A DNA stretch of 64,000 bases from Burkholderiales bacterium PBB3 (GCA_002256115.1 NKIK01000003.1:194280-258279); one strand, 5' to 3'; shown: positions 32,031-49,075, counted from the first letter of the stretch. Notes: generated by a model from the letters alone, not told the origin. Numbers and translations: made by a program.

Positions 32031-34561
32031 AAGGTGGTCTCTGTTGGGCTACTTTGCAGTAAATCGTCCATGGTCCAAAGGAGTACCCGCACATCCACCG
32101 GCTTGGTCAGATAGCCGTCGAAGCCGGCAGCCAGGCCCCGCGCCACATCGGCTGGCATGGCGTTGGCCGTCACGGCAACAAAGGGTACGTGCCGGAATCG
32201 CGCGTCCGCTTTCAGAATGCCCAAGACCTGGTAGCCGTCGAGTCTTGGCATATCGATATCCAGCAAAACAATGTCAGGCGTGTTGGCCAACGCCAGTTCT
32301 ATGCCTTGCTCCGGCTCGGCGGCAGACGTCAGTTTGAAGTTGGGCCGACGCGCCAATACGACTTCAATCAAGCGCAAGTTGATGGGGTTGTCGTCAATCG
32401 AGAGTACCCGGACCGTGCGCTCCAATGCGCCAGACTCCGTGGCGCAGGCGAAACCCACCTCGCAATCATCCTCGGCAGGCAGCACATCGGGGCCTTGCGG
32501 CAACACAATGCTGAACGTCGTACCCACCCCCACGGTGCTGTGCACCTCCACCGTGCCGCCCATCAGTTCGACCAAGCGCCGCGTGATGGTCAGGCCAATG
32601 CCAGTGCCTTCCACCGTGCCGGTATCGGCACCCAAACGATTAAAGGGTTGAAACAAGTCGCCCAGGCGCTCGGGGGCAATACCCGCACCCGTGTCACTGA
32701 CTGCAATGCACAGCAAGCCCTCTGGCATGACTTGTACCGACGCGGTAACGCTGCCACCGACTCGGTTGTATTTCACGGCGTTAGACAACAGGTTGATCAA
32801 CGCCTGCTTGAGCTTGGTGTGGTCGGCCCGCGCTGTCAGCCCGGCGGGTACCGCAAACTCCAGGCGCACGTTGTGTGCAGTCGCCAGGGTCTGGATCAGG
32901 TCGCGGCAGTCTTTCAGCAGTTCGGCCAGAATCACGCTTTCCAGCGATACATCCAGTTTGCCGGATTCGATTTTGGCCAGGTCCAGCACTTCATTGATCA
33001 AAGCCAACAAGTGCTGCCCGGCCTTCATGATTTCCTGCACACTGTCTTGCTGGTCGGCGTTCAGATCCTGGTCATATTCCAGCATCTGCGCAAATCCCAA
33101 AATGGCATTCATGGGCGTGCGCAACTCATGGCTCATGCTCGACAAAAAATCGGACTTGGCCAGATTGGCCCGCTCGGCCTCGTCTTTGGCCCCGGCCAAC
33201 TCCGCACGGCGCGCCAGTTCGGCGCTGAAGTCGGTAAATATATTGAAAGAGTACTGCACCCTGCCGTCGTCATCACGAATAAACCCCACATTGCTGGCCG
33301 ACGTAAAAACGGAGCCGTCTTTGCGCTGGATAGTCAGTTGGCCCATCCAGCCACGCTCGGAGGCAACCGCGTCCCGCGAAGCCAGTTTGAATGCCTCTTT
33401 TGCTTCCTTTGGCACTACTTTGGAGAAGTGTTGCCCCAAAATTTCTCCATCGCGGTAACCCAGTTCTTTTGCCTGCGCCTGGTTTTGATAGACCACGATG
33501 CCTTTGGCATCGGCAATGCCCACGCACTGATCACTGGAATCAAACACGCGTCTGAATAGTTTCAAGCGCTCCTGGACCTTCTTACGCTCTGAAATATCGG
33601 TCAAAAATGCCGTGTAACTGAGCTTGCGGTCATGTTGTAGCGGTGTGACCACCAGCTCGACCGGGAACACTTCGCCGTTTTTACGCTGGGCAGTGGCCTC
33701 TATTCTTTGACCCGGCGTAGTCATGCCAACGGCCTTGCGCCCAGGCACCAAATGGCGGTAGATACCGCGTTGGCTGGTGGGATCAAACCGCTCGGCCTCA
33801 GGCACCAACGTGCTTTGCACTGTAGCCCCCACGGCATCTTCCGCCGTCCAGCCAAATATGGTCTCGGCCCGGTGGTTCCAGGCGGTGATGTGCCCTTGCG
33901 CATCGATGCCCACCACTGCGTCGGGCACATCTGCCAACACGGCCTTGAGGTGCAGTTGCGACTCCTGCAGCTGCCAGGCGGTTTGATGCGACGCGCGCCC
34001 TACCACAATCAGCGCCGCTATACCCGCCAGCAAGACCAGCGCCACCAAACGGTCAACATCACCGCCGGTGACCAGGCCGACAGTCGCCGTGGGCAACAAA
34101 GCCCCCACCACAAAGCCCGCCATGGCCATGCGCTGCTCTGACACCGAAGCGACGATAACCGCGCTGACACAAAACAACATACTCACAAACAAGACCGCAT
34201 AGGGGCCATCAATGGGCCACATCATCAGCGCAGGCCCCACGGACCAGCACAGGCCGGAGACGGTGATCTGCAGCGCAAATACGCGCTGCCAAAAGACGAT
34301 ATTTTGTCCGGACGGAGCCGCCCTAAAGAATGCCCAACAGTTGAAACCGGCCGCTAGACACATGCAAGCCATGGCGCTGACCCAGATCACTTTGGGCTGG
34401 TGCGGCAGGTAGGGCCAAAGGACCCACGCACCAACAATGGTTGCAACGGCCGACATGGCCACATCCAACACATTTCTTCTGTAGGCCAGATACAGAAGCG
34501 CCGATTCAACGGACAAGTCGCGGTGGGGCTGGGGCATCGTTTGATGATACCCACGCACCAC
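32027..34561 (-). CDS. Hybrid sensor histidine kinase, paralogue of 28480..30981
   Basis: Same architecture: 'SSMSHELRTPMNAI', 'GTGIGLTI', REC 'IVLLDIDMPRLDGY'. Confidence 0.85.
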   Translation of the reverse strand: MVRGYHQTMPQPHRDLSVESALLYLAYRRNVLDVAMSAVATIVGAWVLWPYLPHQPKVIWVSAMACMCLAAGFNCWAFFRAAPSGQNIVFWQRVFALQITVSGLCWSVGPALMMWPIDGPYAVLFVSMLFCVSAVIVASVSEQRMAMAGFVVGALLPTATVGLVTGGDVDRLVALVLLAGIAALIVVGRASHQTAWQLQESQLHLKAVLADVPDAVVGIDAQGHITAWNHRAETIFGWTAEDAVGATVQSTLVPEAERFDPTSQRGIYRHLVPGRKAVGMTTPGQRIEATAQRKNGEVFPVELVVTPLQHDRKLSYTAFLTDISERKKVQERLKLFRRVFDSSDQCVGIADAKGIVVYQNQAQAKELGYRDGEILGQHFSKVVPKEAKEAFKLASRDAVASERGWMGQLTIQRKDGSVFTSASNVGFIRDDDGRVQYSFNIFTDFSAELARRAELAGAKDEAERANLAKSDFLSSMSHELRTPMNAILGFAQMLEYDQDLNADQQDSVQEIMKAGQHLLALINEVLDLAKIESGKLDVSLESVILAELLKDCRDLIQTLATAHNVRLEFAVPAGLTARADHTKLKQALINLLSNAVKYNRVGGSVTASVQVMPEGLLCIAVSDTGAGIAPERLGDLFQPFNRLGADTGTVEGTGIGLTITRRLVELMGGTVEVHSTVGVGTTFSIVLPQGPDVLPAEDDCEVGFACATESGALERTVRVLSIDDNPINLRLIEVVLARRPNFKLTSAAEPEQGIELALANTPDIVLLDIDMPRLDGYQVLGILKADARFRHVPFVAVTANAMPADVARGLAAGFDGYLTKPVDVRVLLWTMDDLLQSSPTETTL

Positions 34562-34577: not shown

Positions 34578-34922
34578 CTACTGGTCTGTGGCGACGCCCA
34601 GCCGCCACAGCGACGTCACCTCTTTGGAGCGTGCTGCGTGCGGCGGGTCGGTGGCCACGATCCGGCCGATTCCCCGGCGCGCCAGCACCGCCAACAAAAC
34701 ACCGGTGCCCGTGCCAATATCAAAGGCGCACAGGGCCGCCACCGAAGCCACGCTAACGGCGCCGGGTGGGCCCCAGGCCTCTGCACAAGCCTGACGCGCA
34801 TCGGGGCTGCGCTTCAGAGGGACACTGTAGTCAGCCTCAAAGCCAATCAACAGCATGCCCAGCACGCGAGAGCGCTGGGCTTGGCGATGCAGATGGAAGC
34901 CTGCGGCAAAACTAAGTGCCAA
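34578..34922 (-). pseudogene. Decayed copy of the methyltransferase gene at 47407..48756
   Basis: The translation matches three separate blocks of the 467-aa protein ('FHLHRQAQ..VLGMLLIGFEADY', 'FDIGTGTGVL.AVLARRG', 'HAAR..EVTSLWRL'), with two large internal deletions and no N-terminal third. Confidence 0.65.
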
Positions 34923-34986
34923 ATCGGCCTTTGAAGCCGTGGATAGTGCGGGAGCAGCTCCTGAATTAATAGCGGTTAACGGGGAG
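34906..34986 (-). repeat. Dispersed repeat, copy 6
   Basis: 34936-34986 is identical (51/51 nt) to 28412-28462 of copy 5. Confidence 0.85.
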
Positions 34987-35020: not shown

Positions 35021-36373
35021 TCACGACGGCCGCACAGGCTTCTTGCCGCGCTTGGGCGCCAGCAATACCGACTCACCCACTCTTGCAGTGGCGAATTTCT
35101 GGGGTGGTGATGGCTCCATCACCCCCGCCTCTTGAGTGAGCTTTGTCATTTCTGGCACCTGGATTTGAATGCGCTCGTTCAGTCGATTGAGCCCTGCGTT
35201 CCAGTGCCACAGCATCCTCGCGCCCACCGCGTCAAACCCTGGCGTGTGCTTCATGCGTTGAATCAATTCCGGCACGGTCGCCGCCACGGCGGTGCACACC
35301 AGCTCAGCGAGTTCGCGTTGGCGCGGGGGGTCGATACCCAGAAACACTTGCATGAATTGCCACAAGGGCTTCAGATGGGTCCAGCTCTTGCGGCCATCGA
35401 TGGACATGCCTGGCGGGTTATCCGCGTAGCTGTCATAGGCCACGATGGTCAGCATGTCGTAGATGGGCGCGACATGCACATCCTCCAAGCCGGTGTACAA
35501 AAAAGCAAGATTCTTGGTGTGGCAGTCTGAGTTGCCAAGTGCGTGCGTCAACAGCAGTGTCACGGCCAGTTGCTCGTAGGACGCGCGGCGGCCCTGGGGT
35601 GGCACATAGTTGCGCACAAGGCGCGCGGCGCGCTCCCAGGTGCCGTCGTACTTTTGCTCGGCACCCATGCCCAGCATGCTGCAAAAGTCTTCAAAACCCA
35701 GCCGCTCGCCAGTGAGCGGATCAATGTCAAAGCGCTCGACCACGAGGATCTGACCGTCGTCGGAAACCACTGTTTCTGCAACCGCGAAGCCGGTGGCTTT
35801 GGCCGCTTGCATACACAGGTGCTCGTTGAGCCCCACAAGCGGTTGCTTGTCTGAGCTAGCTTTGACGATGTGGCGCTCTGTGGATACGGTGCCTTTGCGG
35901 AACAGTGCTTTGGTCTCTGGCGTCAGAAATTTGGGGACCACCCCCGACACGCCTGAGGCCGCGTACTGGCTCATCAATTGCAGAAACACTTCGCGCGAAG
36001 ACTCACCATGCAACAGTCCATCGAGTTCATTGGCGGCGAGTTGCGGATTGGGACTACTGCCTGCGCTTACCTGAACGCGACCGATCATGTTGTGCCCCAC
36101 CACCGACAGCAGATCCATGGGACTTGCTCCCAGATGCGGCCCCAACTGCTCTTTGAGGACGGACAGTAAAAACCCCTCCGGCAGACTCACCTGAAAGAAA
36201 GGGTGCAGATTGGGCCACTCCCAGCTGGGGGACTGCACGGGCATGAGCAGCGACACAAAATCCTCGGGAGGGGTTCCGTGCAGGTAGGTCAGGTAATGCT
36301 CAAACCCTGCGGGGCTCTGCAACACCGCCACATGTCTGCCGTTCACGAAGACATTGAGTTCTGCCTTGCTCAT
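35021..36373 (-). CDS. hipA: HipA-family Ser/Thr kinase toxin
   Basis: 450 aa. N-terminal HipA coupling region; catalytic loop 'GNSDCHTKNLAFL' (DxHxKN); overlaps the upstream HTH gene. Confidence 0.85.
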   Translation of the reverse strand: MSKAELNVFVNGRHVAVLQSPAGFEHYLTYLHGTPPEDFVSLLMPVQSPSWEWPNLHPFFQVSLPEGFLLSVLKEQLGPHLGASPMDLLSVVGHNMIGRVQVSAGSSPNPQLAANELDGLLHGESSREVFLQLMSQYAASGVSGVVPKFLTPETKALFRKGTVSTERHIVKASSDKQPLVGLNEHLCMQAAKATGFAVAETVVSDDGQILVVERFDIDPLTGERLGFEDFCSMLGMGAEQKYDGTWERAARLVRNYVPPQGRRASYEQLAVTLLLTHALGNSDCHTKNLAFLYTGLEDVHVAPIYDMLTIVAYDSYADNPPGMSIDGRKSWTHLKPLWQFMQVFLGIDPPRQRELAELVCTAVAATVPELIQRMKHTPGFDAVGARMLWHWNAGLNRLNERIQIQVPEMTKLTQEAGVMEPSPPQKFATARVGESVLLAPKRGKKPVRPS

Positions 36374-36669
36374 GGCTTGCCGGACGCTCCGTGCGAAGCA
36401 TTGCGCAGTTCTTGCTGCAAGTCGTTCAAATTGGGGCGGCGGGTAGCGGGCACAAACTCCATCTCCACATCCAACACCTGCAACAAACGCAAGAGCTTGC
36501 CTGCGGATAGATCGCTGGAGGCCCCCGTCTCAAAGCGCGACAGCGTCTCTTGTCGCAATCCGGCAGCTGCTGCTACCTCAGTCTGCGTCTTGCCCGCTGC
36601 CTTGCGCAGCTGCTTGTACCGCGCACCAACGTCGGGCAGTGTTAATAAGGGATTTGCGTTTGGCATCAT
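36370..36669 (-). CDS. hipB: XRE-family HTH antitoxin (HipB-like)
   Basis: 'YKQLRKAAGKTQTEVAAAAGLRQETLSRFETG' HTH. ATGA-type overlap with hipA. Start taken at ATG 36669; the ORF extends to TTG 36690. Confidence 0.75.
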   Translation of the reverse strand: MMPNANPLLTLPDVGARYKQLRKAAGKTQTEVAAAAGLRQETLSRFETGASSDLSAGKLLRLLQVLDVEMEFVPATRRPNLNDLQQELRNASHGASGKP

Positions 36670-36706
36670 AAATTGGAGAAAATTTTCCAAATCATGCTGT
36701 TCATTG

Positions 36707-36842: not shown

Positions 36843-36913
36843 CCCCCTAGATTAGTGGCCAAAAGTGCCTTTCAACCGGCGATAGTGCGGGGGCAGCTCC
36901 TGAATTAGTAGCA
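36843..36913 (-). repeat. Dispersed repeat, copy 7 (degenerate)
   Basis: 'CCCCCTAGATTAGTGGCCAAAAGTGCCTTTCAACCGGCGATAGTGCGGGGGCAGCTCCTGAATTAGTAGC'. Confidence 0.75.
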
Positions 36914-37092: not shown

Positions 37093-37578
37093 TTATAGGC
37101 CAAGAACATCACAGTGAAGTGGCCTGAGGTGAAACTTGCGGCGTTCGCGGCCCTGCCACTCACGCGGTACTTTGTCGAGTTCGCAGTTGAGTGTGACGCT
37201 GTTGACAATGCCAAACCCCAAAGCTACCCACTCAAACTCTCGCGAGTCTGATCCTGCATTTACCTTAAACCAGAATGCCTGTGTCGGGTCGCTTGAACTG
37301 GGAGGCATGCCAGGGTATCGCACCGGGGTCGCTTTCCCGGTAGCCACAACGACAAGGGCAGTACCCCGCGCGTCGGTAGTCGCGTAAATTGGGCGTTCGC
37401 AATCATCCGAGCCCAAGCTTCTGTAATCCAGGCACGTTGAGATGCCTGCAGCTCGCACTGGCTTTCCCGACTTTGTCAGCGTCACAGTAATCGGCGTAAG
37501 GACGACGTTCTCCGCATAAGCGGCAGGTACAGCCAAAGCGAGTGCTAAGGCGATATGAATGTGCCGAACGTAATACAT
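37093..37578 (-). CDS. Small secreted hypothetical protein in a low-GC patch
   Basis: Start moved to ATG 37578 ('MYYVRHIHIALALALAVPAAYA|EN' signal peptide). The longer ORF to 37917 would overlap the HKD gene. Confidence 0.4.
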   Translation of the reverse strand: MYYVRHIHIALALALAVPAAYAENVVLTPITVTLTKSGKPVRAAGISTCLDYRSLGSDDCERPIYATTDARGTALVVVATGKATPVRYPGMPPSSSDPTQAFWFKVNAGSDSREFEWVALGFGIVNSVTLNCELDKVPREWQGRERRKFHLRPLHCDVLGL

Positions 37579-37849
37579 GCTCGCGTGAAATCTACTTAAT
37601 GTCCAGAGCACCAATAAGTGCTCGATAAACTGGCTGATGCACGATATTCTGGTCATCAAATCCTCCCGAAAGTGGCTTGCAGCCTCACTTTCACTGTTTT
37701 TCGACTTTGTTAAATGGATATCGATATTCTGGCAGACCTGCCGAGACTGGCGGATACAAAACCATGTCCACAGACTCCATGAGACTGAAATTGGGTGACC
37801 GTCCTGAACGACAGCTATCACCCACAGATCGCAACGAGCAGGCTGAATC

Positions 37850-38566
37850 TCAATCGCCCAACTTTCCCCACAACTGATCAAACGCCCCCTGAAACTGCCG
37901 CACCAACGCAGCGTCATTCGTCACAACCACGTTCTCTTCGTTATGAGCCGCAGCACTGCGCGTCCAGTTGTAGCTGCCGTTCAGCAGCCACTGCCCATCA
38001 AAGATCGCAAACTTGTGGTGCATGTGCGCATCGGTGCGGTCCACGGCGGTGGGCACACCGGCGGCGCGCAGTCGGGTCACATCGCTGCCGGAGTCGGTTT
38101 CTTTGTCGTTGTCGGTGATGAAGCGCAGGGCCACGCCGCGTGCATGCGCGGCCAGCACCTCTTGGGCGATGCGGTCGTCGGACACGGTGAACACACAAAA
38201 ATCTACGCTGCGGTGGGCGCTGCGGAAGTGCTCGACGATGGTGTTCAGGCAAGCTTCACCAGGGCTAAAGAATGCGCTGGAGCGAATGGCTTGCGCTGGC
38301 GTACGGGCCACGTCCAGCGCGCGCACCACGGCCTCCGTCCAGCGCAGCACGGCCATGGGGTCTTGCTGTTCGGCCAACCGGTTGCGCGCCAGTGTGAAAG
38401 CATGGTTGCGCAGTTGGCGAAAGCCGTCTTCCGGCGGCTGGGCCTGGCGCAGGGTTTGGGCCAGGCTGTGTTTCTCTTCGTCGTCCAAGCGCAGGTCGGC
38501 CAGAGAGGCTTCCAACTGGCCTAGCAAGTTTTCCATGTCTGCGGGTGTGGCAGTCATCGTTTCCAC
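37850..38566 (-). CDS. Single-HKD phospholipase D-family protein (Nuc-like nuclease/phosphodiesterase)
   Basis: 'HMHHKFAIFDGQWLLNGSYNWTRSAA' HKD motif near the C-terminus, after a ~90-aa helical N-terminal extension. Starts 2 nt after the giant gene's stop. Confidence 0.85.
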   Translation of the reverse strand: METMTATPADMENLLGQLEASLADLRLDDEEKHSLAQTLRQAQPPEDGFRQLRNHAFTLARNRLAEQQDPMAVLRWTEAVVRALDVARTPAQAIRSSAFFSPGEACLNTIVEHFRSAHRSVDFCVFTVSDDRIAQEVLAAHARGVALRFITDNDKETDSGSDVTRLRAAGVPTAVDRTDAHMHHKFAIFDGQWLLNGSYNWTRSAAAHNEENVVVTNDAALVRQFQGAFDQLWGKLGD

Positions 38567-38568
38567 AC

Positions 38569-41500
38569 TCAGCCCTCGGTCTTCTTGCCACCGCCCTGGG
38601 CACGCGGTGCCCGTGGCTCGTTGGCTTTGGCCAGCAGCAGCTCCAGCCGTTTACTGATGCTGTGGTCCAGGTCCATGCGCTTCTCCGTCGCGGCGATCAG
38701 CGGCATGATGACTTTGCGGTATGTCACCGCCAACTGCAGCACGGCCTCAGCCATTTGCGCTCCCTCACTGGGTTCTTTGGGTCCCGCTGCCGGGCGCAAC
38801 TCATCAACCGACCGGCTCACATCCAGCAGTGCATTGGCAATGCGCGTAGAGCCGTCCGCATCCGCCCCACCCGCTTTGCGCTGGCGCACAAATTCGGCGC
38901 AGATGGCCTGCCAACGCGCATCCTCCTCGGGGCTTGCGGTGCCCATCAGTTGGGCCAGCTTGAGTAGGTTTTCTTGCGTGCCGGTGGTCAGGGTCTGGGC
39001 CTCACCCCGGTAGTGGTCGCGCAGCAGGGCGTCCAGTTCATCCTCATGCATCAGCCCGGTGATCTGGGCAGCCAGCTTGGTCATATTGCGGTAGCTGCCC
39101 TGTAGCTTGAAAGCGGGCTCGGTGCGGTAGTCGTCACGCTGGGCGGCTGAATCGATATAGGCCTGGTTCACCTTCAGCAGCAGATCGCGCGCGCGGAACA
39201 GCCTTTGCATGAGTGCTTTAAGCTCTTCCAGTTCGGCACTACTGTAAGCATGGGCAAAGTCGCCGCTGGCCACCTCATCCCCCTGGGCCAGGCGCACCAG
39301 CAATTGCACATCGCGCGGGTCGCGCGATGACAGGGGTGCCAGCACCGGATTGCTGGTCAGGCTGTTCTCAATATACGACTGGGCGAACAGGGCTTCGCGC
39401 CCAGCCAACACATCGCCCAGGTTGTAGATATCGGCCCGGTTGGCCAGCATGTCCGGGATCTTGAAGACCTCGCCCGACTCGGTATACGGGTTGCCCGCCA
39501 TGGCGATGGCAAAGCGCTTACCGCGCAAGTCGTAGCTGCGCGCCTGGCCTTGCCACATGCCTTCAATGCGGCGCGTGCCATCGGCCAGGCCGATGAACTT
39601 CTGCAAAAACTCCGCACTGGTGTGCTGAATGTCGTCCAGGTAGAGCATCACATTGCTGCCCATGGCCAGGCCCAGGTTCAGCTTCTCCAGCTCTTGGCGG
39701 GCAGCGCTGTTGCTGGCCGACGCAGGGTCAAGCGCCGTCACGTCATGGCCCAGTGCGGGGCAGTTGATGCGCACAAACACCAGCCCCAGCCGGTCGGCCA
39801 CATATTCCATCAGCGTGGTCTTGCCATAGCCAGGCGGCGAAATCAGCAACAACAGCCCCATGCGGTCCGTACGGCTGGTGGCACCGGTGGTGCCAATCTG
39901 CTTGGCCAGGTTGTCGCCAATCATCGGCAGGTACACCTCGTCGATCAGACGGTTGCGCACAAAAGATGACAAAGGCTTGGCCTGGAACTGGGATAAACCG
40001 AGGCGCGATTTTTCTGCGCTCAGCAGTTCGTGGTGCAAGCTTTTGAGCGCTGCAAACGCGGGCACCACCGTTTCGGCATGCGCGCGGTAGCGGCTCCAGA
40101 AGTCATTCAAATTGATCTGCAAGCTGCCTTGATTGATGCGGGCGTGTTCGCTGCGCAAACCGGTCACCGTGGCATCCAGCACCACATTCACCCTGCGGCG
40201 CTGGCCTGGCACAGCCAATACGCAGGCGGCATCGTCTACCCATGCGATGGCGGTCGGCTGGTGCGCCAGTGCAAAGGCATGCATCCAGGCACGCGCCAGC
40301 AACCAACGCTCGGCGGGTGTGGATGCATCCAGGCTGTGTTGCCAATCCAGCGCTTGGCCCAGGCGCTCCAGCTCGCGCTGCAGTGCGCTGGCCATGTCTT
40401 CGCCCGCGCCGCTGATAACCCAGGCCTGCTCTGTACCTGCAGCCCCAATCTCCCGCAGCCAATAGCTCGCGGCTTGATGGCACGCGGTCTGGTGATGCCC
40501 GTTATCAACGGACACTGGCGACAACGCGAAGCCGCTCTCTTCGGCAAACTGCAGCACGCTGTGCGCGGCCTCCACTTCCAGTTTTTGCAGGCTATCGCCA
40601 GCGCCAAAGAGGTGTTGCACTTGCAGCGCTGCACGCGCACGCCGCCGCCAAGACGCCTGCGCCTCACCCGAGCCCAAGTGCTGCCAAACCAATGTCGCCA
40701 GCGCGCGCTCTGTGGGGCCCCAAGTCAGCAAGCCTGCCTGCTCTTGCATGGGCACCAAAGCAGCAACCAAGCGCACCGCATCTTCGTCGTGCACGCCCTT
40801 TTCGTACCCTTCTTGATAACGGGCTGCGGCAAATTGGCGCACGCCCTCCAGCAGCGCCGCATGGCCGTCTTCACCTTGCGCCACCAGCGCCAGAGTTTGT
40901 GCCCAGGTCAGTGTGGCCTGCCCTTTTAGAACCTCTTCAATCCAACTTGCCGCCAAGTACTCTGCGCGGCTGATCAGCGCGGTCTCAGACGGCAGGGCTT
41001 GTTGCCAATACGGGCGATACGCGTCCAGCCGCGCGTCTTGCAGCGGTGCCCGGTAATCCGTGCCCGTCAGGTAAAAGGCCATGCTGTCGCCCAGCGGAGC
41101 CAGTGTGAGCTCCAGCGGCTGGCGGCTGATGGTGAAAGCGTGGCGGCCCAGGCGCAAATGGTTGCCGCCCTCAGACACCAGCTCGCGCTGATCACGCACC
41201 GCGCGCAAGGCGTGGTCGCGGCAAGTCTTGAGGCGCGTGTCCAGATCATCCGCAGCCACCTGGTCACCCAGGCCCCGCATGTCTGCAATCAGAGTGCGCA
41301 GCTTGGCAATCAGCAAGTCCGCCGCAAAGTAGCTGTGCACTTCTTCCAAGCCACTGAGCTGGGCCACACGGCGCTGCGCCCCGTCCAAAATGCGACCGGC
41401 CGCTGCAGCCAGAGCCTGCACGCGCTGCTGGCGCGCTTGCACCAGCGTTTGCTTGCGCGCGGTCAGCGCTTCGTAGACGGCCTCGCGTTTCTCTGTCACA

Positions 41501-43743
41501 TCGGCCAAGAACTCAGCGTGCTCGGCAAAGCGGCCCTCCAGCTCTTCCAGTTGGGCCAGCAGGCGGGTCAATGCGTCATCGCATTTTTCGGGGGTGTCGG
41601 CAAAGTCCAGCGCGTTCTCCACCGCTTGGCCAAACAATTTGAACTGGGCCTGAAACTCGGCTGCCGCCTCGCGCGAGCCCAGTGCCTTGCGTCGGTTACG
41701 CGCATCGGCTCGCAAGCGGTTGATGTCGGTGTACAGCGCAGAAATGCGCTCCAGAATGCCAGTGCGCTGCACGGCATCGCCGCCGGGCAAACCACCCAGC
41801 TGTTCGGTCAGCAGGTCCAGGCCTGCGGCCGTATCGTCCAGCCCCTGCAGAATGCTTTGTAGGCCCTGGCTGGTGGATACCTTGGGCAGCTCAGTGGCCA
41901 CTTGTGCCAGTTGCTGCTGGTGGGCGTGGAAGGCCTTTGCATCGGCCATGAAGGCCATGGCGCGCTCACCCACGCGCTGCTGCTCGGCCACCAGCTCGGT
42001 GTGCATGGCCTCTATGCGGGGCAGATCGGTGTAGCGCAGTTCTTTCAGGGTTTCCAGGTGGCCGCGGCGTTCGCGCAGGCGGCCCAGCGCCGCCACAAAG
42101 TCTTCGGGCTTGCGCCATAGCGTGCTGGCAATATCCACCACCAGTGCCTTGTGCTGGGCCTGTGCTTCGTCCAGGGCCTTGGCGGTCTCCTTGCGGATTT
42201 GCTCTACCTTCTCAAACTCGGCCAGCGTGGTGCGCGCCGCATCGCCAATGCCTTGCAGGTCTTGCAGCAAAGCACCCGCCTCGGGGTCGGCCAGCCAAAA
42301 ATAAGCGTCTGTGACGCGTCCGCATTGGCGAATCAAATCCTCATAGGCGGTGCGGGTGGGCGCTTGCTCTTGCAAGGCGCGCGCAATGCCCATCAACTCG
42401 GCAATACCGCGCACCAGCTCCGCATTGCCGATACGGCTGAAAAAGCCGGTGCCCGCATTCGCGCCGCCCGCGTACTCCTCGCTAAAAAACGGGGTTTGCC
42501 ACAGCTGCATCGGGTGCAGCCGCGTGGGCTCACCCATGCCCGCCTGAAACACCAGCACCTTGCCATCGGCAAACAGCGCGTAGCCATTGGCCACGATCGG
42601 CGCGGCCAAGGATTTATCGATCAGGTTGTAGGTAAACAGCGCATAGTGGCCGCTGACCGGCTGGTAAAACAGATACAGCACATCCTCGCCATTGGGCGAG
42701 CGCAGCATGCGCTTGAAGCGCAAATTGCGTGCAACATCTTCAGGCAAATCAAAGTGCTTGAACTCGCCCGACTGCAGGTAATAGCCACCCGGAAACACAA
42801 TGCCGTGGTCCTCCGGCAACTGCACACACGACAAGCCAATGGCATCAATGCGCGCTACCTGCAGCGTGCGCTGGTTGAAGACCAGATAGCGGGTAGTTTG
42901 TTCGCGATAGGGCCGCACGCGCAGCAAAATGAGTGCGCCCAGCTTGGCGTAGGCCACCTCGGCATCGGTGAGCGACTGGCTCTTGTCGTCCACCGGCTCG
43001 CTGTAAATGCCCAGTCCGGTTTCGGTGTTGTTCTCTACCTTAACGGTCAGGTCGCCACCCACCGTCTCCACGAATACCGTGTCCAGAATATTGATATGCG
43101 GATGCTTGCCGTCCACATGGTTTTCACGGGTGGTTGGCGTCCATTCAAAGTCGTGGCTAGGCGGTAGCGCAATGTCGCGCTCGCCACGGTTGTCCAGATA
43201 CTGCAGCGTGCCATCTGGCGACAACTGCCAGCGGAACACGCGCACGTCGTGCACTTGCTGACCTATCTGAAAAGCCGCCAGCAGCTTACCCTGCGTGACC
43301 CGCAGTTGCAGCAGTTGGGCTTGCTTGTAATAGGCGTAAAGCTCTTTGAAGTCGGATGCGAAACGCGCGTCTTCCAGAAAGCTGCCAGCCAGAGGCACAT
43401 CTTCCAGATCCTGCTCGGTACCCATGCGGTACAGCGCAAAAACATCCCCCACGCTGGTCTCTTTGCGCAGGCCAATGAAAACGTTATAGCCAAACAGCAG
43501 CAGATCGCCAATGCGCACGATGTCGCGGGCGACACAGTTGTTTTGGGTGCGGGCACGGGTGCGCAGTACCAGCGTTTGCTCGGACTTGCCAAACTCTAGC
43601 GTGCGGGCGGCATTGAGCGTTTGTGCTTTTTTAAGCAGCACTTCGCCCTGCACGGTCAGGCGATTCTTCAGCAGCTCGTAGCTATTGCTGCCAGCGACCA
43701 GACTCTCAGTGGAGTCTGCCGCCGCGGATGTGTCAGAAGGCAT
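38569..43743 (-). CDS. 1,724-aa protein with one C-terminal AAA+ (MoxR/AAA_5-like) module; N-terminal 1,300 aa unassigned
   Basis: Walker A 'SPPGYGKTT' (nt 39814-39837), Walker B 'VMLYLDD' (nt 39631-39648), 'AMAGNPYTESGEVFKIPDMLANRADIY'. Residues ~480-900 are Ala/Leu/Gln/Arg-rich and coiled-coil-like. Uninterrupted ORF with coding-like composition. Confidence 0.85.
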   Translation of the reverse strand: MPSDTSAAADSTESLVAGSNSYELLKNRLTVQGEVLLKKAQTLNAARTLEFGKSEQTLVLRTRARTQNNCVARDIVRIGDLLLFGYNVFIGLRKETSVGDVFALYRMGTEQDLEDVPLAGSFLEDARFASDFKELYAYYKQAQLLQLRVTQGKLLAAFQIGQQVHDVRVFRWQLSPDGTLQYLDNRGERDIALPPSHDFEWTPTTRENHVDGKHPHINILDTVFVETVGGDLTVKVENNTETGLGIYSEPVDDKSQSLTDAEVAYAKLGALILLRVRPYREQTTRYLVFNQRTLQVARIDAIGLSCVQLPEDHGIVFPGGYYLQSGEFKHFDLPEDVARNLRFKRMLRSPNGEDVLYLFYQPVSGHYALFTYNLIDKSLAAPIVANGYALFADGKVLVFQAGMGEPTRLHPMQLWQTPFFSEEYAGGANAGTGFFSRIGNAELVRGIAELMGIARALQEQAPTRTAYEDLIRQCGRVTDAYFWLADPEAGALLQDLQGIGDAARTTLAEFEKVEQIRKETAKALDEAQAQHKALVVDIASTLWRKPEDFVAALGRLRERRGHLETLKELRYTDLPRIEAMHTELVAEQQRVGERAMAFMADAKAFHAHQQQLAQVATELPKVSTSQGLQSILQGLDDTAAGLDLLTEQLGGLPGGDAVQRTGILERISALYTDINRLRADARNRRKALGSREAAAEFQAQFKLFGQAVENALDFADTPEKCDDALTRLLAQLEELEGRFAEHAEFLADVTEKREAVYEALTARKQTLVQARQQRVQALAAAAGRILDGAQRRVAQLSGLEEVHSYFAADLLIAKLRTLIADMRGLGDQVAADDLDTRLKTCRDHALRAVRDQRELVSEGGNHLRLGRHAFTISRQPLELTLAPLGDSMAFYLTGTDYRAPLQDARLDAYRPYWQQALPSETALISRAEYLAASWIEEVLKGQATLTWAQTLALVAQGEDGHAALLEGVRQFAAARYQEGYEKGVHDEDAVRLVAALVPMQEQAGLLTWGPTERALATLVWQHLGSGEAQASWRRRARAALQVQHLFGAGDSLQKLEVEAAHSVLQFAEESGFALSPVSVDNGHHQTACHQAASYWLREIGAAGTEQAWVISGAGEDMASALQRELERLGQALDWQHSLDASTPAERWLLARAWMHAFALAHQPTAIAWVDDAACVLAVPGQRRRVNVVLDATVTGLRSEHARINQGSLQINLNDFWSRYRAHAETVVPAFAALKSLHHELLSAEKSRLGLSQFQAKPLSSFVRNRLIDEVYLPMIGDNLAKQIGTTGATSRTDRMGLLLLISPPGYGKTTLMEYVADRLGLVFVRINCPALGHDVTALDPASASNSAARQELEKLNLGLAMGSNVMLYLDDIQHTSAEFLQKFIGLADGTRRIEGMWQGQARSYDLRGKRFAIAMAGNPYTESGEVFKIPDMLANRADIYNLGDVLAGREALFAQSYIENSLTSNPVLAPLSSRDPRDVQLLVRLAQGDEVASGDFAHAYSSAELEELKALMQRLFRARDLLLKVNQAYIDSAAQRDDYRTEPAFKLQGSYRNMTKLAAQITGLMHEDELDALLRDHYRGEAQTLTTGTQENLLKLAQLMGTASPEEDARWQAICAEFVRQRKAGGADADGSTRIANALLDVSRSVDELRPAAGPKEPSEGAQMAEAVLQLAVTYRKVIMPLIAATEKRMDLDHSISKRLELLLAKANEPRAPRAQGGGKKTEG

Positions 43744-43751
43744 GCAGACCC

Positions 43752-44288
43752 TTACCAGTCAGCACGCAACAAGGCGACTAGCTCGTCACGGCCTGGCTGC
43801 GCCTGAAGCCACTGGCGAATGCGTGCCAGCTCATCCATGGTCTCAGCGCCGTGGCGTTGGCGCAGCACGGCTTCGCGTCCTTGGCGCAACTCGTTAGTCT
43901 GCAATTGGCGCTGCCAAGCATCGGTCAGAATCTCGTCGAGCCGGCTGCCCAGACCTGCTGCCACAAATGCCTGCCACTCGCCGCGGGCAAACCAGACGTT
44001 CTGGCACGCAGCGCAACGGTCCACGCGGAAGTCGGGCTGCGCGCCTACGCGGAAACGCTGCATCAGGCGCGCGCACGCAGGGCAATGCCGGGCGATCGGG
44101 TCTTCATCGGCAGCGATGGCTTGCGCCACCGGCGGCACCGGTGTTTTGTCGCGCCAGGCGCGGTAGTCGTCGAGTTGTAAAAGCTGGCCTTCACAACTGA
44201 CGCATTCCAGGCCCTGCAGTCCGGGTGCCAATTCGCAGACTGTGAGTTCGGTGTGGGCCTCGCAGCCGCAGCGCAGTGTTGATTTCAT
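43752..44288 (-). CDS. Double zinc-ribbon protein (zf-TFIIB-like)
   Basis: 'CPACARLMQRF...VDRCAACQNVWFARGEW' matches the CPxC...DxCxxCxGxWxDxGE pattern. A degenerate first copy is 'CGCEAH...CVSCEG'. 8 nt upstream of the giant gene. Confidence 0.65.
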   Translation of the reverse strand: MKSTLRCGCEAHTELTVCELAPGLQGLECVSCEGQLLQLDDYRAWRDKTPVPPVAQAIAADEDPIARHCPACARLMQRFRVGAQPDFRVDRCAACQNVWFARGEWQAFVAAGLGSRLDEILTDAWQRQLQTNELRQGREAVLRQRHGAETMDELARIRQWLQAQPGRDELVALLRADW

Positions 44289-44303
44289 GGGTGTGCTCCT
44301 GCG

Positions 44304-46466
44304 TTACTCGGGTTTCTGGCCACTTTTGTTGGTCTTGGACAGCAAGGAGGCAATCGCCAGGTCTTTCAGCTCGCCCGACGAGTTGCCGAGCGACCCGACC
44401 AGTTGCCCCAGGTCGTCCACCATATTGCGTTTGCCCGACAGGTGATCTTTCAGCCCGATCTTCAGCGTATCGCTCTTGGCGATAGCGCCGTCGATGCCCT
44501 TGCCCACCGCCAGCGCACTGACGAAACGCTCGAAGTAGCTGCCGTCGCCGCCCACCATCTCGATCTTGGCATTGGCCAGTGCTTTGCCCAGGACTTCGGC
44601 CTGCTCTTTGGCGATGGCGGTTTGTGCATCGATGCCCTTGAGGGTCTCGGTATGCGCCATCTCCAGCCGCATGCGGTATTCCTCGTGGTCGCGCGTTTCG
44701 CTGCTCATGGCCTTCATGGCTTCAAACTTCTCGCGCAGGCCCTTGGCCTCTGCAGAGAAGCGTGCTTGCACGTTCTGGGCATCAGCTTCGCCTGCCTTGA
44801 TCGTGGCTTCGGCTCCGGCGGTGCGCACAGCCACTTCGGCCAGGCCCAGTTTCTCTTTGCCTTGCGCTTCAGCTTCCAGTTTGGCCTGCAGGCCCGTGGC
44901 TTCGGCTTGCGCGCGCGCTTCGATCACCTGCGCGTCTGCCAGGCCGGCTTTGATGGTGGCTTCCACGCCCGCTGTACGCACCGCCACATCGGCCAGGCCC
45001 AGCTTCTCTTTGCCTTGCGCTTCAGCCTGGTTACGCGCCTCAATCACATGCACATCCGACAGACCCTTTTTCTCGGTGGCGTCGGCAGTCACCATCATCA
45101 CGCGGGCGGCCGCCAGGCCAGGGGCGGCACTCACTGCCTCCATGCCTTCCGCCTCCCGCTTTTTGGACTCGGCGTTCTTCTCTGACACCTTGAGTCGCGC
45201 ATCCGCCATGGCGACTTCTTCGCTAGCTTTGTGGCGTGCACTGCGTTCTTGCGACTCTGCCGCCTTCACTTCCGCAATCATTTTTTCTTCGGCCTGACCT
45301 TCAGCCAGGATGATGGTGGAGCGCTTGGTGCGCTCTGCCTCCGCTACCACGCGCAGTTCCTTGATGGCTTCTTCTTGCTCGGCCACGGTGCGGTCCACCA
45401 CGATGCGTTCGCGGATCACGTCGGCAATGGCTTTCTTTTGCACCTCCAGCGCGCGTTCTTTGTCGATCTTCTGCAGGGCCACTTCTTTCTCGCGGTCCAC
45501 CACTTCCAGGTCGCGCGCACGAATCACTTTTTCTTCTTCAATGGCCACCGCGCGCTTGCGGTTGTTCTCGGCCACTTCTTTTTCGCGCAATGCGTTTTCG
45601 TTTTGCACTGCTACCTGCTGCTCGCCTTGCAGGCGCGCCATCTCGGATTTGGTGCGTTCCTCAGATTGGATCTTGGAAGTCTCGGCCTCTTCGCGAGCGC
45701 GCATGGTGGCCACTTCCCGCTGCTGGCGGGCTTGGGCGTCGGCGGCCTGGCGATCCAGCTCCAGCATGGTCTCCTGGGTTTCCACGTTTTTCTTCTTGAT
45801 CTGCATCTCTTCGTTGCGGCGCAGCTCGTTGGTGCGCACGCTCTCCACCGCCGTCAGCTCGGTGATTTTCTTGATGCCCTGGGCGTCCAGAATATTGCTC
45901 GCGTCCAGCTTGGACACCGGTGTTTGCTCCAGGTAGTCAATGGCAGCATCTTCGAGCACATAGCCCGACAGGTCGTCGCCAATCTGGCGAATGATTTCGT
46001 CGCGGAAATGGTCGCGCGCCTGGTACAGGTCCACAAATTCCATGGACTTGCCCACGGTTTTGAGCGCCTCTGAAAACTTGGAGGAGAACAGGTCTTCCAA
46101 CGCATCCTGGTTGGAGGCTCGCTCGCAGCCCACGCCTTGGGCGACCTTCAAAACGTCTTCCGCGGTTTTGTTGACGCGTACGAAAAACTTGACCTTGATG
46201 TCGGCGCGGATGTTGTCCTTGCAGATCAGCCCTTCGCGGCCCGAACGGTCAATCTCAATGGTCTTGACCGAGATGTCCATCAACTCGGCCTTGTGGATGA
46301 TGGGGTAGACCATGCAGCCTGTGAAAGTGACCGTAGGCTCAGCGCGCATGGTGTTCACGATCAGGGCGTGGCCCTGCTCAATCTTCCGGTAAAAGCGCGC
46401 AAACAATACAAACATGCCGAACACGATGACCGTGATGACGGCTGCTGCGACGATGATGGGTTCCAT
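44304..46466 (-). CDS. yqiK: Flotillin-like SPFH (band 7) protein
   Basis: N-terminal TM 'IIVAAAVITVIVFGMFVLFARFYRK', SPFH domain, long Glu/Ala/Arg coiled coil. Internal 153-nt duplication ('QGKEKLGLA(D/E)VAVRTAG.EATIKAG' twice, period 44838 vs 44991). Confidence 0.9.
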   Translation of the reverse strand: MEPIIVAAAVITVIVFGMFVLFARFYRKIEQGHALIVNTMRAEPTVTFTGCMVYPIIHKAELMDISVKTIEIDRSGREGLICKDNIRADIKVKFFVRVNKTAEDVLKVAQGVGCERASNQDALEDLFSSKFSEALKTVGKSMEFVDLYQARDHFRDEIIRQIGDDLSGYVLEDAAIDYLEQTPVSKLDASNILDAQGIKKITELTAVESVRTNELRRNEEMQIKKKNVETQETMLELDRQAADAQARQQREVATMRAREEAETSKIQSEERTKSEMARLQGEQQVAVQNENALREKEVAENNRKRAVAIEEEKVIRARDLEVVDREKEVALQKIDKERALEVQKKAIADVIRERIVVDRTVAEQEEAIKELRVVAEAERTKRSTIILAEGQAEEKMIAEVKAAESQERSARHKASEEVAMADARLKVSEKNAESKKREAEGMEAVSAAPGLAAARVMMVTADATEKKGLSDVHVIEARNQAEAQGKEKLGLADVAVRTAGVEATIKAGLADAQVIEARAQAEATGLQAKLEAEAQGKEKLGLAEVAVRTAGAEATIKAGEADAQNVQARFSAEAKGLREKFEAMKAMSSETRDHEEYRMRLEMAHTETLKGIDAQTAIAKEQAEVLGKALANAKIEMVGGDGSYFERFVSALAVGKGIDGAIAKSDTLKIGLKDHLSGKRNMVDDLGQLVGSLGNSSGELKDLAIASLLSKTNKSGQKPE

Positions 46467-46523
46467 GAAAACTCCCTAGTGAAACAAATTACTTAAACGA
46501 TCGAAGAGGCAGTGCGCAGGGCG

Positions 46524-47153
46524 CTAAGGCTCCGCCACCACCTTGTAGCGTGCTGTCTTTTCGTCATAGCCCACGATGCGTGCACTGCTACCGCGTGCCA
46601 GTGCATTGGGCACAGGCGTCCAGATGCGAATATTGATGCTGGCACCGTGCTGGGCCACCTCGGCGCGGCCCATCTGCTCATCCACCGTTTGGGTCAGCAC
46701 TTTGCAGGTCTGCCCCACCAGCGATGCATTGTTGATGGCAGCGTGGGTGACGAACAAACCACGCAGCGGCCGAATCATGCGGGCACTGACCGTGACCGCC
46801 AAAGACAGGCTGGCCAGGGCCAACACAGCACCCGCGCCGTAGTTGGCTGCGGCACCACCCAACCAGGGCAGCACCCACATGGCCCCCAGGCAGCTCAGTG
46901 TCCAAGCGACCAATATGACCAGGCTGACCGCGATAGAAAATGGAACCCCGTGCAGGCCGAAAGCGACCACATAGCTGGCCACCGTGCTGATCTCGTAGCC
47001 GTCCACATCGGCGGCAGAGCCAGGCTCCAGGTCCAGAGACTCTAAATCGACCACGCCCAGCAGGGCCAGCAGCCAGTAAAAGATCACGACCCCTAAAAAA
47101 GTCGTGAAGAGTGCGGTGGGAAATGCGACCACCGCGTCCAAAAAGCTCAGCAT
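46524..47153 (-). CDS. yqiJ: YqiJ-like inner-membrane protein with C-terminal NfeD-type OB fold
   Basis: 209 aa, which I recall is about the size of E. coli YqiJ. Multiple TM segments, then a beta-rich 'LVGQTCKVLTQTVDEQMGRAEV...' domain. Directly upstream of the flotillin gene, as in yqiJK. Confidence 0.7.
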   Translation of the reverse strand: MLSFLDAVVAFPTALFTTFLGVVIFYWLLALLGVVDLESLDLEPGSAADVDGYEISTVASYVVAFGLHGVPFSIAVSLVILVAWTLSCLGAMWVLPWLGGAAANYGAGAVLALASLSLAVTVSARMIRPLRGLFVTHAAINNASLVGQTCKVLTQTVDEQMGRAEVAQHGASINIRIWTPVPNALARGSSARIVGYDEKTARYKVVAEP

Positions 47154-47311
47154 TGTTCTCCCTCTTATATGGCTAAGCGCCGTTTTGCCGCGATGTTAGC
47201 CAATCTGGCCCGCGGCGGGCCCGTTTTCTACGGGCTTGCGGATATTGTGTGCAATAAATTGGCCCCACAGCGCAAAAGCCATCTTGGGCTTAGGGGCCTT
47301 GGCAGCCGCGC

Positions 47312-47382
47312 AATTTAAATGAATTCAAGCTGTAGAGCCCATGGATAGTGCGGGAGCAGCTTCTGAATTGATAGCAATCAAT
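47312..47382 (-). repeat. Dispersed repeat, copy 8
   Basis: '...GAGCCCATGGATAGTGCGGGAGCAGCTTCTGAATTGATAGCAATC'. Confidence 0.8.
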
Positions 47383-47406
47383 AACAACGAATGGCCAACT
47401 GCGGGG

Positions 47407-48756
47407 CTAGCGTGCGGGTGCCACCGCCAACCGCCACAGCGAGGTGACCTCTAGCGCACGCGCCGCGTGCAGCGGGTCGGCCGCATCAAAGGCCTTGCCA
47501 TGCACCGGCTTGGTATCCAGCCGCCCCAGCACCTGCAGGCCCGCGCCAGCAATCGCGTCCAACAATTCAGCGCGGCTGCGCAGGCCCAGGTGTTCGGCCA
47601 AATCCGAGAGGATCAGCCAGCCCTCGCCCTGCGGCTCCAAGTGCGCGGCCAGGCCCGCCAAAAAGCCCAGCAGCATAGCGCTGCCTTCGTCATACACCGC
47701 GTGCTCTATGGGTGAGCTGGGCCGGGCGGGTAGCCACGGCGGGTTGCACACGATCAGATGCGCCAGCCCTGGCGGGAATAGGGATGTCTGCAACAACTGC
47801 ACCGGCGAATCAGCGCGGCCCGCCACGCCCAGCCTCTGCAAATTTTCAGCCGCGCAGGCCAGGGCGCGCGGGTCCAGATCGGTGGCCACGATATGGCCCA
47901 CACCCCGGCGCGCCAGCACCGCAGATAACACGCCCGTGCCCACACCAATGTCAAACGCCGTCAGCTTGGCGGCGGCCTGCGCACCGTGGGCTCCTTGGAC
48001 TCCTTGGACTACTTGGACACTTGGCAGCGGTGCCTGCTGCACCAAGCTCACATACTCACCCCGCTGCGGAGAAAACACGCCGTAGTGCGGGTGGATGCGG
48101 TTGTGGGGCGCAGCGCCCAGGGCGGGCACTTCCACACCGTTTTTGCGCCACTCGTGCGCGCTGATCAGGCCCAGCAGCTCACGCAATGACGCTACCGAAG
48201 CCACAGCGTCCGCACCCGGCGGGCCCCAAGCCTCAGCACAGGCCTGGCGCGCATCGGGGGCGCGCTTGAGTGCGATACCGTAATCCGCCTCAAAGCCAAT
48301 CAGAAGCATGCCCAGCACGCGCGCACGCTGCGCCTGGGCTTGGCGGTGCAAATGAAAGGCAGTGGCCGGATTCGATGCCTTTTCGGCCACTGAGGCCGTG
48401 GATAGTGCGGGAGCAGCTCCTGAATTAATAGCATTGCGCTCTGGCGCGCCCGCTAGTTGCTTTGCCCTCTTGATGGCCTTGGCACCCTTGGCGGCTTTGC
48501 CGCTGGGGCCCGACGCATCGGCCCGCCGCGCGAGCGCCTGCAGCATCTGCCGCGCGTTTTGAAAATCACCCCGCCACAGCAGCGCCGTGCCTTCGCAGGC
48601 CAGGCGGTAAGCGACATCGGCGCTCAGGGTGTCATCGGCCAGCACCACGCGCTTGGGTGGGCTGACACCACGCTCTGAGCGCCACTGCGCGCTGCAGGGC
48701 TGGCCGGCTTCTTGCCAGTGGATGCGGGCTTCGCCCGATGTTGGTGAAGTCGTCAT
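47407..48756 (-). CDS. Class I SAM-dependent methyltransferase (NPPW motif; HemK/RsmC-like) with a long N-terminal extension
   Basis: 'FDIGVGTGVLSAVLARRG' motif I, 'LIVCNPPWLPA' motif IV. Start ambiguous (48756, 48771 or 48810). Contains repeat copy 9 in frame. Confidence 0.75.
   Translation of the reverse strand: MTTSPTSGEARIHWQEAGQPCSAQWRSERGVSPPKRVVLADDTLSADVAYRLACEGTALLWRGDFQNARQMLQALARRADASGPSGKAAKGAKAIKRAKQLAGAPERNAINSGAAPALSTASVAEKASNPATAFHLHRQAQAQRARVLGMLLIGFEADYGIALKRAPDARQACAEAWGPPGADAVASVASLRELLGLISAHEWRKNGVEVPALGAAPHNRIHPHYGVFSPQRGEYVSLVQQAPLPSVQVVQGVQGAHGAQAAAKLTAFDIGVGTGVLSAVLARRGVGHIVATDLDPRALACAAENLQRLGVAGRADSPVQLLQTSLFPPGLAHLIVCNPPWLPARPSSPIEHAVYDEGSAMLLGFLAGLAAHLEPQGEGWLILSDLAEHLGLRSRAELLDAIAGAGLQVLGRLDTKPVHGKAFDAADPLHAARALEVTSLWRLAVAPAR
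48366..48433 (-). repeat. Dispersed repeat, copy 9 (in frame inside the methyltransferase)
   Basis: '...GAGGCCGTGGATAGTGCGGGAGCAGCTCCTGAATTAATAGC', translated on the minus strand as '[19 protein letters not shown]'. Confidence 0.8.
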
Positions 48757-48760
48757 AAGT

Positions 48761-49075
48761 TCAGTAGCCATGGAGGGCGTATTCCAGGGCGTCCCAAATG
48801 GCTTCGGCATCGCCTTGCAGGTTGGCTACTGGGCGGCGCAGATCGCCGGGCTCATGGGAGGTAATCGCCAAAGTCTCCAACACAAGCATTTCACCCGCAA
48901 CACTCAGCCAGGGATTCAGTGTGGTGGGAGGCGCTGTTTGCGTATCCGGGCGCGCCAACGCCACGGTGATCACCGCTACGGGGCGTTTCAGAAAATTGCT
49001 TTGAATGCCGACGACGAAGGGATGACTGTCGCGCAACTCTTCGACCGGGTTGGGGTACACATCGAACTGAGCCAT
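48761..49075 (-). CDS. ccdB: CcdB-family toxin
   Basis: 104 aa. 'MAQFDVYPNP......PFVVGIQSNFL' matches the CcdB N-terminal pattern. 1-nt overlap (TGATG) with the upstream antitoxin gene. Confidence 0.7.
   Translation of the reverse strand: MAQFDVYPNPVEELRDSHPFVVGIQSNFLKRPVAVITVALARPDTQTAPPTTLNPWLSVAGEMLVLETLAITSHEPGDLRRPVANLQGDAEAIWDALEYALHGY

Follow-up and report, generated by a model that had tools for sequence, protein, structure and literature searches.

Two published descriptions come closest to the five-gene operon considered here, which occupies positions 37850–47153 of a 64,000-nucleotide stretch of DNA from Burkholderiales bacterium PBB3 (GCA_002256115.1, NKIK01000003.1:194280-258279; the whole stretch is called the window below) and encodes a short NfeD-like membrane protein, a flotillin, a zinc-ribbon protein, a giant AAA+ ATPase and an enzyme of the phospholipase D (PLD) superfamily. 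In the first of them (Ravi et al. 2024, mSystems; bioRxiv 2020; PMC11237479), an operon of CesT/Tir(DUF2170)-PspA with a band-7/flotillin protein, a β-propeller/coiled-coil AAA+ protein and a YqiJ/YuaF protein with three transmembrane (TM) segments was placed within the PspA envelope-stress network. A PLD/HKD hydrolase was reported to be added to it "in some Proteobacteria", abbreviated operons without PspA were found to be more widely distributed, and a chaperone-like function in building membrane-linked complexes was proposed.

The second is the biofilm-associated cluster bacABCDEF of Pseudomonas aeruginosa (PA3732–PA3727 / PA14_16140–16200; PMC10948618, with Macé 2008 as cited there). Its six genes form one transcript, for which a sigma-54 promoter upstream of bacA was proposed, and the Bac proteins are co-regulated, all of them rising in a bacA mutant. 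The bacA and bacB mutants, the only ones for which data exist, are impaired in biofilm formation, rhamnolipids, swarming and virulence. In the published naming PA14_16160 is a short NfeD and PA14_16180 an SPFH protein; the domains and functions of BacE and BacF are not described in PMC10948618. Phage infection induces the genes PA3728–PA3732, which were termed "phage shock proteins".

We consider it probable that the window operon is a PspA-less, zinc-ribbon-bearing member of this Bac/phage-shock-protein (PSP)-associated class, whose AAA+ ATPase would remodel flotillin assemblies in membrane stress. There is good support for the family assignment and for a functional link within the triad of NfeD-like protein, flotillin and giant ATPase; for the direction of the ATPase action and the substrate of the PLD enzyme, both argued by analogy, there is not.

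The five open reading frames (ORFs) were confirmed on the minus strand with intergenic gaps of 57, 15, 8 and 2 nt, exactly as in an earlier note on this DNA, which had called a co-directional operon. In order of transcription, they encode the YqiJ/YuaF-type (short NfeD-like) membrane protein (46524–47153, 209 aa), the flotillin of the SPFH2/YqiK type (44304–46466, 720 aa), the double zinc-ribbon protein (43752–44288, 178 aa), the giant ATPase (38569–43743, 1,724 aa) and the single-HKD PLD-superfamily enzyme (37850–38566, 238 aa from a GTG start). A public gene call starts the last gene 9 nt later, at an ATG, which shortens the product to 235 aa and widens the last gap to 11 nt. The first ORF is served by the ribosome-binding site GAGGGAG; a scan for sigma-70 promoters and terminators returned matches at chance level only.

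Comparison with the bac cluster relied on a P. aeruginosa-type locus (L100, a stretch of a 4.99-Mb contig), which encodes a DUF2170 protein of 206 aa, a PspA of 231 aa, proteins of 213 and 688 aa, a 1746-aa protein with DUF3686, DUF7902 and AAA domains, and a 235-aa PLDc_2 protein. This locus gives exactly the published bacD/E amplicon length of 557 bp. When the published PA14 reverse transcription PCR primers are placed on other Pseudomonas loci, 19–20 of 20 bases fit the flotillin gene at its 3' end, and 15–16 of 21 bases fit the homologue of the giant ATPase gene at a conserved "NNC" motif close to its 5' end. A metagenome scan with the bacE/F forward primer yielded contigs carrying several exact PA14 primers, and one with the published PA14_16180/90 reverse primer found nothing. 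It should be added that the latter primer, as given in the supplementary table of PMC10948618, matches positions 4641–4661 of L100 in 16 of 21 bases, for which a typographical error or a strain difference is possible, and that the 16190/16200 primer pair does not fit (published 501 bp, 174 bp in L100).

The window proteins align with those of L100 in the same gene order and orientation: the NfeD-like protein with the BacC-like protein (31% identity, E 2e-24), the flotillin with the BacD-like protein (54% identity), the giant ATPase with the BacE-like protein (48% identity over the full length) and the PLD enzyme with the BacF-like protein (49% identity over the full length). The four window genes are orthologues of bacC, bacD (PaFlo3), bacE and bacF; what distinguishes the window from bacABCDEF is the lack of bacA and bacB and the extra zinc-ribbon gene between the flotillin and ATPase genes. 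The window operon is thus bacCDEF with a zinc-ribbon gene, and the comparison identifies BacE as a DUF3686 β-propeller/MoxR-AAA+ giant and BacF as a Zucchini-like PLD, identities that are new here.

The one-genome-per-species scan found at least 586 species with a relative of the giant ATPase, and 80 loci were analysed, from Burkholderiales, Pseudomonas, Xanthomonadales, Enterobacterales, marine Gammaproteobacteria, Myxococcota, Actinomycetota, Acidobacteriota and one Clostridia metagenome-assembled genome, with all ORFs of these loci searched iteratively for homologues of the operon genes. Homologues of the NfeD-like and flotillin genes lie directly upstream of the ATPase gene, on the same strand, in all 70 loci that have enough upstream sequence. 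These loci cover at least five phyla (Pseudomonadota, Actinomycetota, Myxococcota, Acidobacteriota and Clostridia). Seven of the loci had been scored by script as flotillin-less; in them the flotillin gene overlaps the ATPase gene by a few bases, and they are counted as having it.

The other window genes are far less constant. A PLD gene directly follows the ATPase gene in 16 of 67 loci (about 24%) and is missing from one of the two closest relatives (L087 and L088, 79% identity). A zinc-ribbon gene stands between the flotillin and ATPase genes in 11 of 70 loci (about 16%), all of Burkholderiales type, and is missing from both L087 and L088. The conserved unit is the triad, obligate and co-linear across phyla; PLD, zinc ribbon and the DUF2170–PspA pair are optional add-ons, and the five-gene set, which the earlier note had taken as the unit, is one lineage-specific elaboration of it.

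Clustering of the neighbouring ORFs, combined with Pfam, showed which partners recur. The commonest extra neighbour is a PspA/IM30 gene (22 of 68 loci, about 32%), and a DUF2170 (YjfI) gene is immediately upstream and co-directional in 16 loci. Found less often are genes for a rhomboid protease (in 7 loci) and for proteins weakly resembling TelA, TerB or CorA. On megaplasmid pQBR103 of P. fluorescens SBW25 (L086, NC_009444.1 85446–104350), the triad continues a full yjf-type operon with genes for PspA, rhomboid, DUF2491, DUF350, DUF1190 and glutathionylspermidine synthase. The optional partners of the triad are all related to the membrane or to envelope stress. The pQBR103 copy is one of the few triad copies that are clearly plasmid-borne.

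The NfeD-like protein has the length of E. coli YqiJ, with TM segments at the N-terminus and a soluble domain at the C-terminus. Pairwise comparison with YqiJ did not detect similarity, Pfam gave no match for the protein and none to NfeD or DUF1449 for 45 of its homologues, and a profile search of the PDB returned nothing meaningful. A 45-sequence profile of homologues did match YqiJ across both the TM and the C-terminal domains (hhalign probability 91.5%, E 8.6e-7). The flotillin combines a TM segment at the N-terminus with an SPFH domain, a long coiled coil rich in Glu, Lys and Ala and the flotillin C-terminal region; its Pfam match to Flot is weak and a PDB sequence search found no match. 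It is a true homologue of E. coli YqiK, with 27% identity by BLASTP (E 4e-39) in an alignment that begins at the TM/SPFH region. The description of the first two genes as yqiJ-yqiK-like is thereby borne out, by BLASTP for the second and by profile for the first.

Within the giant ATPase, Pfam recognizes DUF3686 (4.5e-197), DUF7902 and a single AAA/AAA_5 module. The order of its parts is an N-terminal helix, a β-propeller (DUF3686), helical bundles, DUF7902, a coiled coil of several hundred residues, the single MoxR-class AAA+ module and a C-terminal helical domain. AlphaFold2 models were built from diverse alignments; the model of residues 1–560 (predicted local distance difference test, pLDDT, 88) contains a long helix at 6–51, a β-rich domain of about 26 strands at 57–416 and helical bundles. 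The propeller (aa 57–416, the DUF3686 core) is encoded at 42496–43575 and the α/β core of the AAA+ module (approximately aa 1265–1445) at 39409–39951, both on the minus strand. Walker A, PPGYGKTT (39814–39837, minus strand), and Walker B, MLYLDD (39631–39648, minus strand), lie where they had been placed from the sequence and are invariant in alignments of diverse homologues. The AAA+ fold belongs to the MoxR/dynein/midasin clade and is closest to CbbQ and NorQ. A PDB sequence search with the protein gave no match. The family has more than 5,171 matches in a protein collection at 90% identity, most of them named "DNA repair ATPase", and 861 clusters at 50% identity; full-length members typically have 1,600–1,900 aa and their architecture is uniform.

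In the zinc-ribbon protein, ribbons at about aa 7–32 and aa 68–107 precede a conserved helical C-terminal domain. Pfam assigns Zn_ribbon_TFIIB (2e-6), and the CxC...CxxC pattern of the second, N-terminal ribbon is kept across 13 homologues, in agreement with the double zinc ribbon proposed earlier. Its gene is a lineage-specific insertion between the flotillin and ATPase genes. In some loci of Pseudomonas and related bacteria (L024, 9640–9879, with homologues in L026, L033 and L036), a gene of about 79 aa, weakly TerB/EF-hand-like, adjoins the giant ATPase gene, in some cases taking the slot that the zinc-ribbon gene holds in Burkholderiales.

The PLD enzyme matches PLDc_2 in Pfam (4e-30) and carries one intact HxK(x4)D(x6)GSxN motif, read from the sequence at about 37967–38020, so that the single-HKD, PLD-family call stands. 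Its closest solved relatives are MitoPLD/Zucchini (PLD6, the mitochondrial cardiolipin hydrolase; E 4e-27 for 9lkx and 6e-25 for 4ggj), single-HKD enzymes that work at the membrane surface; similarity to the nucleases Nuc (1e-8) and NucT (6e-6) is far weaker. MitoPLD is described as having an N-terminal TM anchor, whereas the window enzyme has a soluble N-terminal extension of about 100 aa, helical and charged and, as judged from its sequence, devoid of a hydrophobic segment; the extension is conserved and occurs also in BacF. Loci of Variovorax, Eleftheria and Aquabacterium have a sixth gene, of about 260 aa, after the PLD gene (L001, 15983–16765; also L003, L007, L061 and L067); the product of this sixth gene has a C-terminal "GMN" CorA-like region with two TM segments (Pfam CorA weak, 8e-4). 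A 274-aa ORF that overlaps the end of the window PLD gene was considered as a sixth gene and rejected; it is unrelated to the CorA-like gene, which is absent from the window. A further ORF of 187 aa, whose N-terminus resembles a signal peptide, is found 193 nt downstream of the PLD gene (37093–37656, minus strand); Pfam gives no match for it, and other genomes show no counterpart of it downstream of the operon.

The mechanism that we propose is drawn by analogy with solved SPFH/NfeD cages and with the flotillin-dependent recruitment of PspA in B. subtilis. The flotillin and its NfeD-like partner would form an oligomeric scaffold or cage on the inner membrane, at its cytoplasmic face. The single AAA+ module of the giant protein would mediate oligomerization, presumably into a hexamer as in other MoxR ATPases, and the long coiled-coil arms and the β-propellers of the protein may engage the flotillin assembly and, in other genomes, also PspA. 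ATP would then be spent to assemble, remodel or dismantle the flotillin assembly under membrane stress. The Zucchini/MitoPLD-like HKD enzyme, where present, would act at the same site, most plausibly on an anionic phospholipid such as cardiolipin, with nucleic acid as a possible substrate, and the zinc-ribbon protein may serve as a lineage-specific adaptor. The suggestion of the earlier note that flotillin, giant AAA+ protein and HKD enzyme cooperate at the membrane is supported by the conserved gene order; the defence purpose that it attached to this cooperation is not.

A more specific version is possible, and we put it forward tentatively: the BacE-family AAA+ protein may be a dedicated ATP-driven motor for assembly and disassembly of flotillin/NfeD cages, and of PspA polymers where present, a counterpart of Vps4 acting on ESCRT-III. 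Six coiled-coil arms with their β-propellers would grip the cage, and the PLD enzyme would convert cardiolipin locally into phosphatidic acid, favouring membrane repair or curvature. In that case bacterial flotillins would pass through a cycle that depends on energy, and it would become possible to test their function directly.

Several points weigh against the assignment to a membrane-stress operon of the Bac/PSP class with a flotillin-remodelling ATPase. MoxR ATPases are normally paired with a VWA partner, and Pfam found no VWA domain in the five operon proteins or in recurrent neighbours. Relatives of MitoPLD/Zucchini can be nucleases, so that phospholipid is only a putative substrate of the PLD enzyme. 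No homologue of PspA or DUF2170 (bacB, bacA) is present anywhere in the 64-kb window. No sigma-54 site of the form TGGCAC-N5-TTGCW with two or fewer mismatches lies in 47154–47406, counts across the window are at chance level, and a sigma-54-like site with three mismatches at approximately 47250–47266 was spotted by eye only. The flanks differ between relatives at 79% identity and toxin–antitoxin genes adjoin the locus (hipBA in the window, PIN-MazE in L088), both of which fit an accessory gene set. Finally, every mechanistic step for BacE and BacF is one that we infer by analogy.

The alternative that survives best, which we nevertheless regard as rather unlikely, is that the assembly is directed at client proteins: the flotillin/NfeD cage would be a platform on which the MoxR AAA+ protein extracts, unfolds or matures damaged or nascent membrane proteins, as a protease-less analogue of HflK/C–FtsH. 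The MoxR-class fold is consistent with it, since CbbQ and NorQ are maturation or remodelling chaperones of other complexes; the β-propeller is a typical module for binding substrates or partners, and the role proposed by Ravi et al. is chaperone-like. In S. aureus, FloA–NfeD is reported to stabilize unfolded proteins and to confine them in membrane microdomains. Against this, the operon encodes no client, VWA adaptor or protease domain. The strict linkage to flotillin fits equally well if flotillin is itself the substrate, and the data do not separate the two models.

An improbable alternative is the one favoured by the earlier note, a membrane-anchored anti-phage or anti-plasmid (abortive-infection) system in which flotillin gates a giant AAA+ sensor that releases an HKD nuclease or phospholipase effector. 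The HKD enzyme does give weak PADLOC matches to MkoB (1e-8), DpdK (2e-8) and DrmC (3e-7), which could suggest such an effector, but NCBIfam scores for defence PLDs are far under the cut-offs (e.g., DrmC 32 bits against a cut-off of 133), and the putative effector is absent from about three quarters of the loci while the triad is invariant. At the level of whole systems PADLOC found no match for the operon, as had been predicted, and only weak domain-level ones; an LmuB/SMC-like match of the giant ATPase is spurious and due to its coiled coil. The induction of the P. aeruginosa orthologues on phage infection, which might speak for defence, is expected of a membrane-stress (phage-shock) regulon.

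The toxin–antitoxin neighbours and the variable flanks of close relatives could likewise suggest a defence island, and on this point the genomic context was examined with the two nearest proteins per side in about 70 loci (135 proteins, a sample without matched control). Two of the 135 match any PADLOC model at 1e-10. The top Pfam families are sigma-70 factors, CoA-transferases, GGDEF proteins, response regulators, β-lactamases and MFS transporters, and integrase, transposase and restriction-modification families are not among the top 25. Within single genera (Variovorax, Pseudomonas, Stenotrophomonas, Comamonas and Nonomuraea) some flanking families recur from species to species, and the commonest partner is PspA. 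A tblastn search of 50,697 phage records found no member of the family, and one of 72,556 plasmid records found it in 13, for the most part megaplasmids, chromids or chromosomes bearing the wrong label. What emerges is a conserved chromosomal triad with ordinary flanks of housekeeping or regulatory genes, no phage copies and very few plasmid copies. The earlier note had named a syntenic core locus without defence-island association as grounds against its reading, and the findings largely agree with that description. Nothing in them points to a new defence system; the discovery claim is correspondingly modest.

The least tenable alternative, that the giant protein is a DNA-repair ATPase with the HKD enzyme as its nuclease partner and the flotillin adjacent by accident, takes support from the Pfam description of DUF3686 and the NCBI names ("DNA repair ATPase"), from weak RuvB matches of the ATPase and from the nuclease activity of the single-HKD proteins Nuc and NucT, but it is highly improbable: the label has no traceable experimental basis, since a full-text search of the literature library used found no paper mentioning DUF3686, the RuvB matches concern the P-loop only and lie far under the cut-offs, the fold is MoxR-class, Pfam detected no DNA-binding, nuclease, VWA, TM or protease/peptidase domain in the protein, and the flotillin adjacency is not incidental because the linkage to two membrane proteins is invariant.

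What the earlier note said of the operon's surroundings was confirmed as well. The hipBA genes are at 35021–36690, an intact methyltransferase ORF is at 47407–48810 (467 aa), and a decayed partial duplicate of it, 64–77% identical in three pieces and also carrying a dispersed repeat, lies at about 34590–34976, just beyond hipA. The repeat, of about 55–60 nt with the core TTCAGGAGCTGCTCCCGCACTATCCACGGCC, is mostly intergenic and occurs in eight copies in the 64 kb, with none expected by chance: at 16401 and 18384 on the plus strand and at 28418, 34942, 36881, 47344, 48401 and 53518 on the minus strand. The copies at 36881 and 47344 bracket the operon, which says little because there are eight in 64 kb; the idea that these flanking repeats are the ends of a mobile element was rejected, as the repeat occurs eight times, with one copy inside the methyltransferase ORF. 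The variable flanks and the toxin–antitoxin neighbours do support the view that the DNA is accessory in this lineage; they do not make the operon a defence system.

In the methyltransferase ORF, the repeat copy is at 48401–48424 (about aa 129–136) and the MTS domain begins only near aa 282, so that roughly the first 200 aa may be over-called. The same sequence occurs in a public contig of 12.4 kb (L005), whose ends fall at the two methyltransferase duplicates. At 28480–34561, on the minus strand, a response regulator with receiver and HD (HD_5) domains stands between two paralogous hybrid histidine kinases (PAS/HisKA/HATPase/receiver; 833 and 844 aa), an RpfG-like arrangement that looks like a duplicated two-component module.

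Taken together, the results connect a Burkholderiales locus with the bac operon of P. aeruginosa, an operon with effects on biofilm formation and virulence, and put right a database name that misleads, "DNA repair ATPase". Across at least five phyla the giant AAA+ protein is never found apart from a flotillin/NfeD pair of its own, which also gives experiments a concrete point of entry to the role of bacterial flotillins.

The resemblance of the window operon to known systems differs in kind from case to case. With the defence systems DISARM (DrmC), Mokosh (MkoB/C) and Dpd (DpdK), the PLD enzyme shares a domain and not a family, and the operon holds none of their partner genes (DrmA/B and methylase, the MkoA helicase, or those of Dpd). 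With the MoxR chaperones CbbQ, NorQ and RavA the giant ATPase shares the AAA+ fold; it differs from CbbQ and NorQ in being about six times larger, in its added β-propeller and coiled coil, and in lacking a VWA partner. The HflK/C–FtsH cage embodies the same principle of an SPFH scaffold with an AAA+ machine, as an analogy only; unlike the membrane-anchored AAA+ protease FtsH, the giant ATPase has neither a TM segment nor a protease domain.

Other parallels are found among the flotillin operons. The B. subtilis pspA-ydjGHI operon, linked to PspA and membrane repair, combines a flotillin-type SPFH protein with YdjG, a protein with two zinc ribbons; it parallels the flotillin and zinc-ribbon genes of the window, again by analogy only, and it has no AAA+ protein or PLD. 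The NfeD–flotillin pairs (SPFH2) of E. coli yqiJK and B. subtilis yuaF-floT are homologous to the first two genes of the operon; yqiJK has no zinc ribbon, giant ATPase or PLD, and the last three genes of the operon are without counterpart there, as had been noted. The earlier statement that no named defence or stress system has this gene set does not hold, since the operon of Ravi et al. and bacABCDEF represent the same system. The gene set and domain architectures of the class of Ravi et al., including the optional PLD, match those of the window, which with no PspA or DUF2170 corresponds to their abbreviated form, here with a zinc ribbon. That description is purely computational and does not mention the zinc-ribbon gene. 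The operon class is thus already published, and what the present comparison adds to it is the zinc-ribbon insertion and the identities of BacE and BacF.

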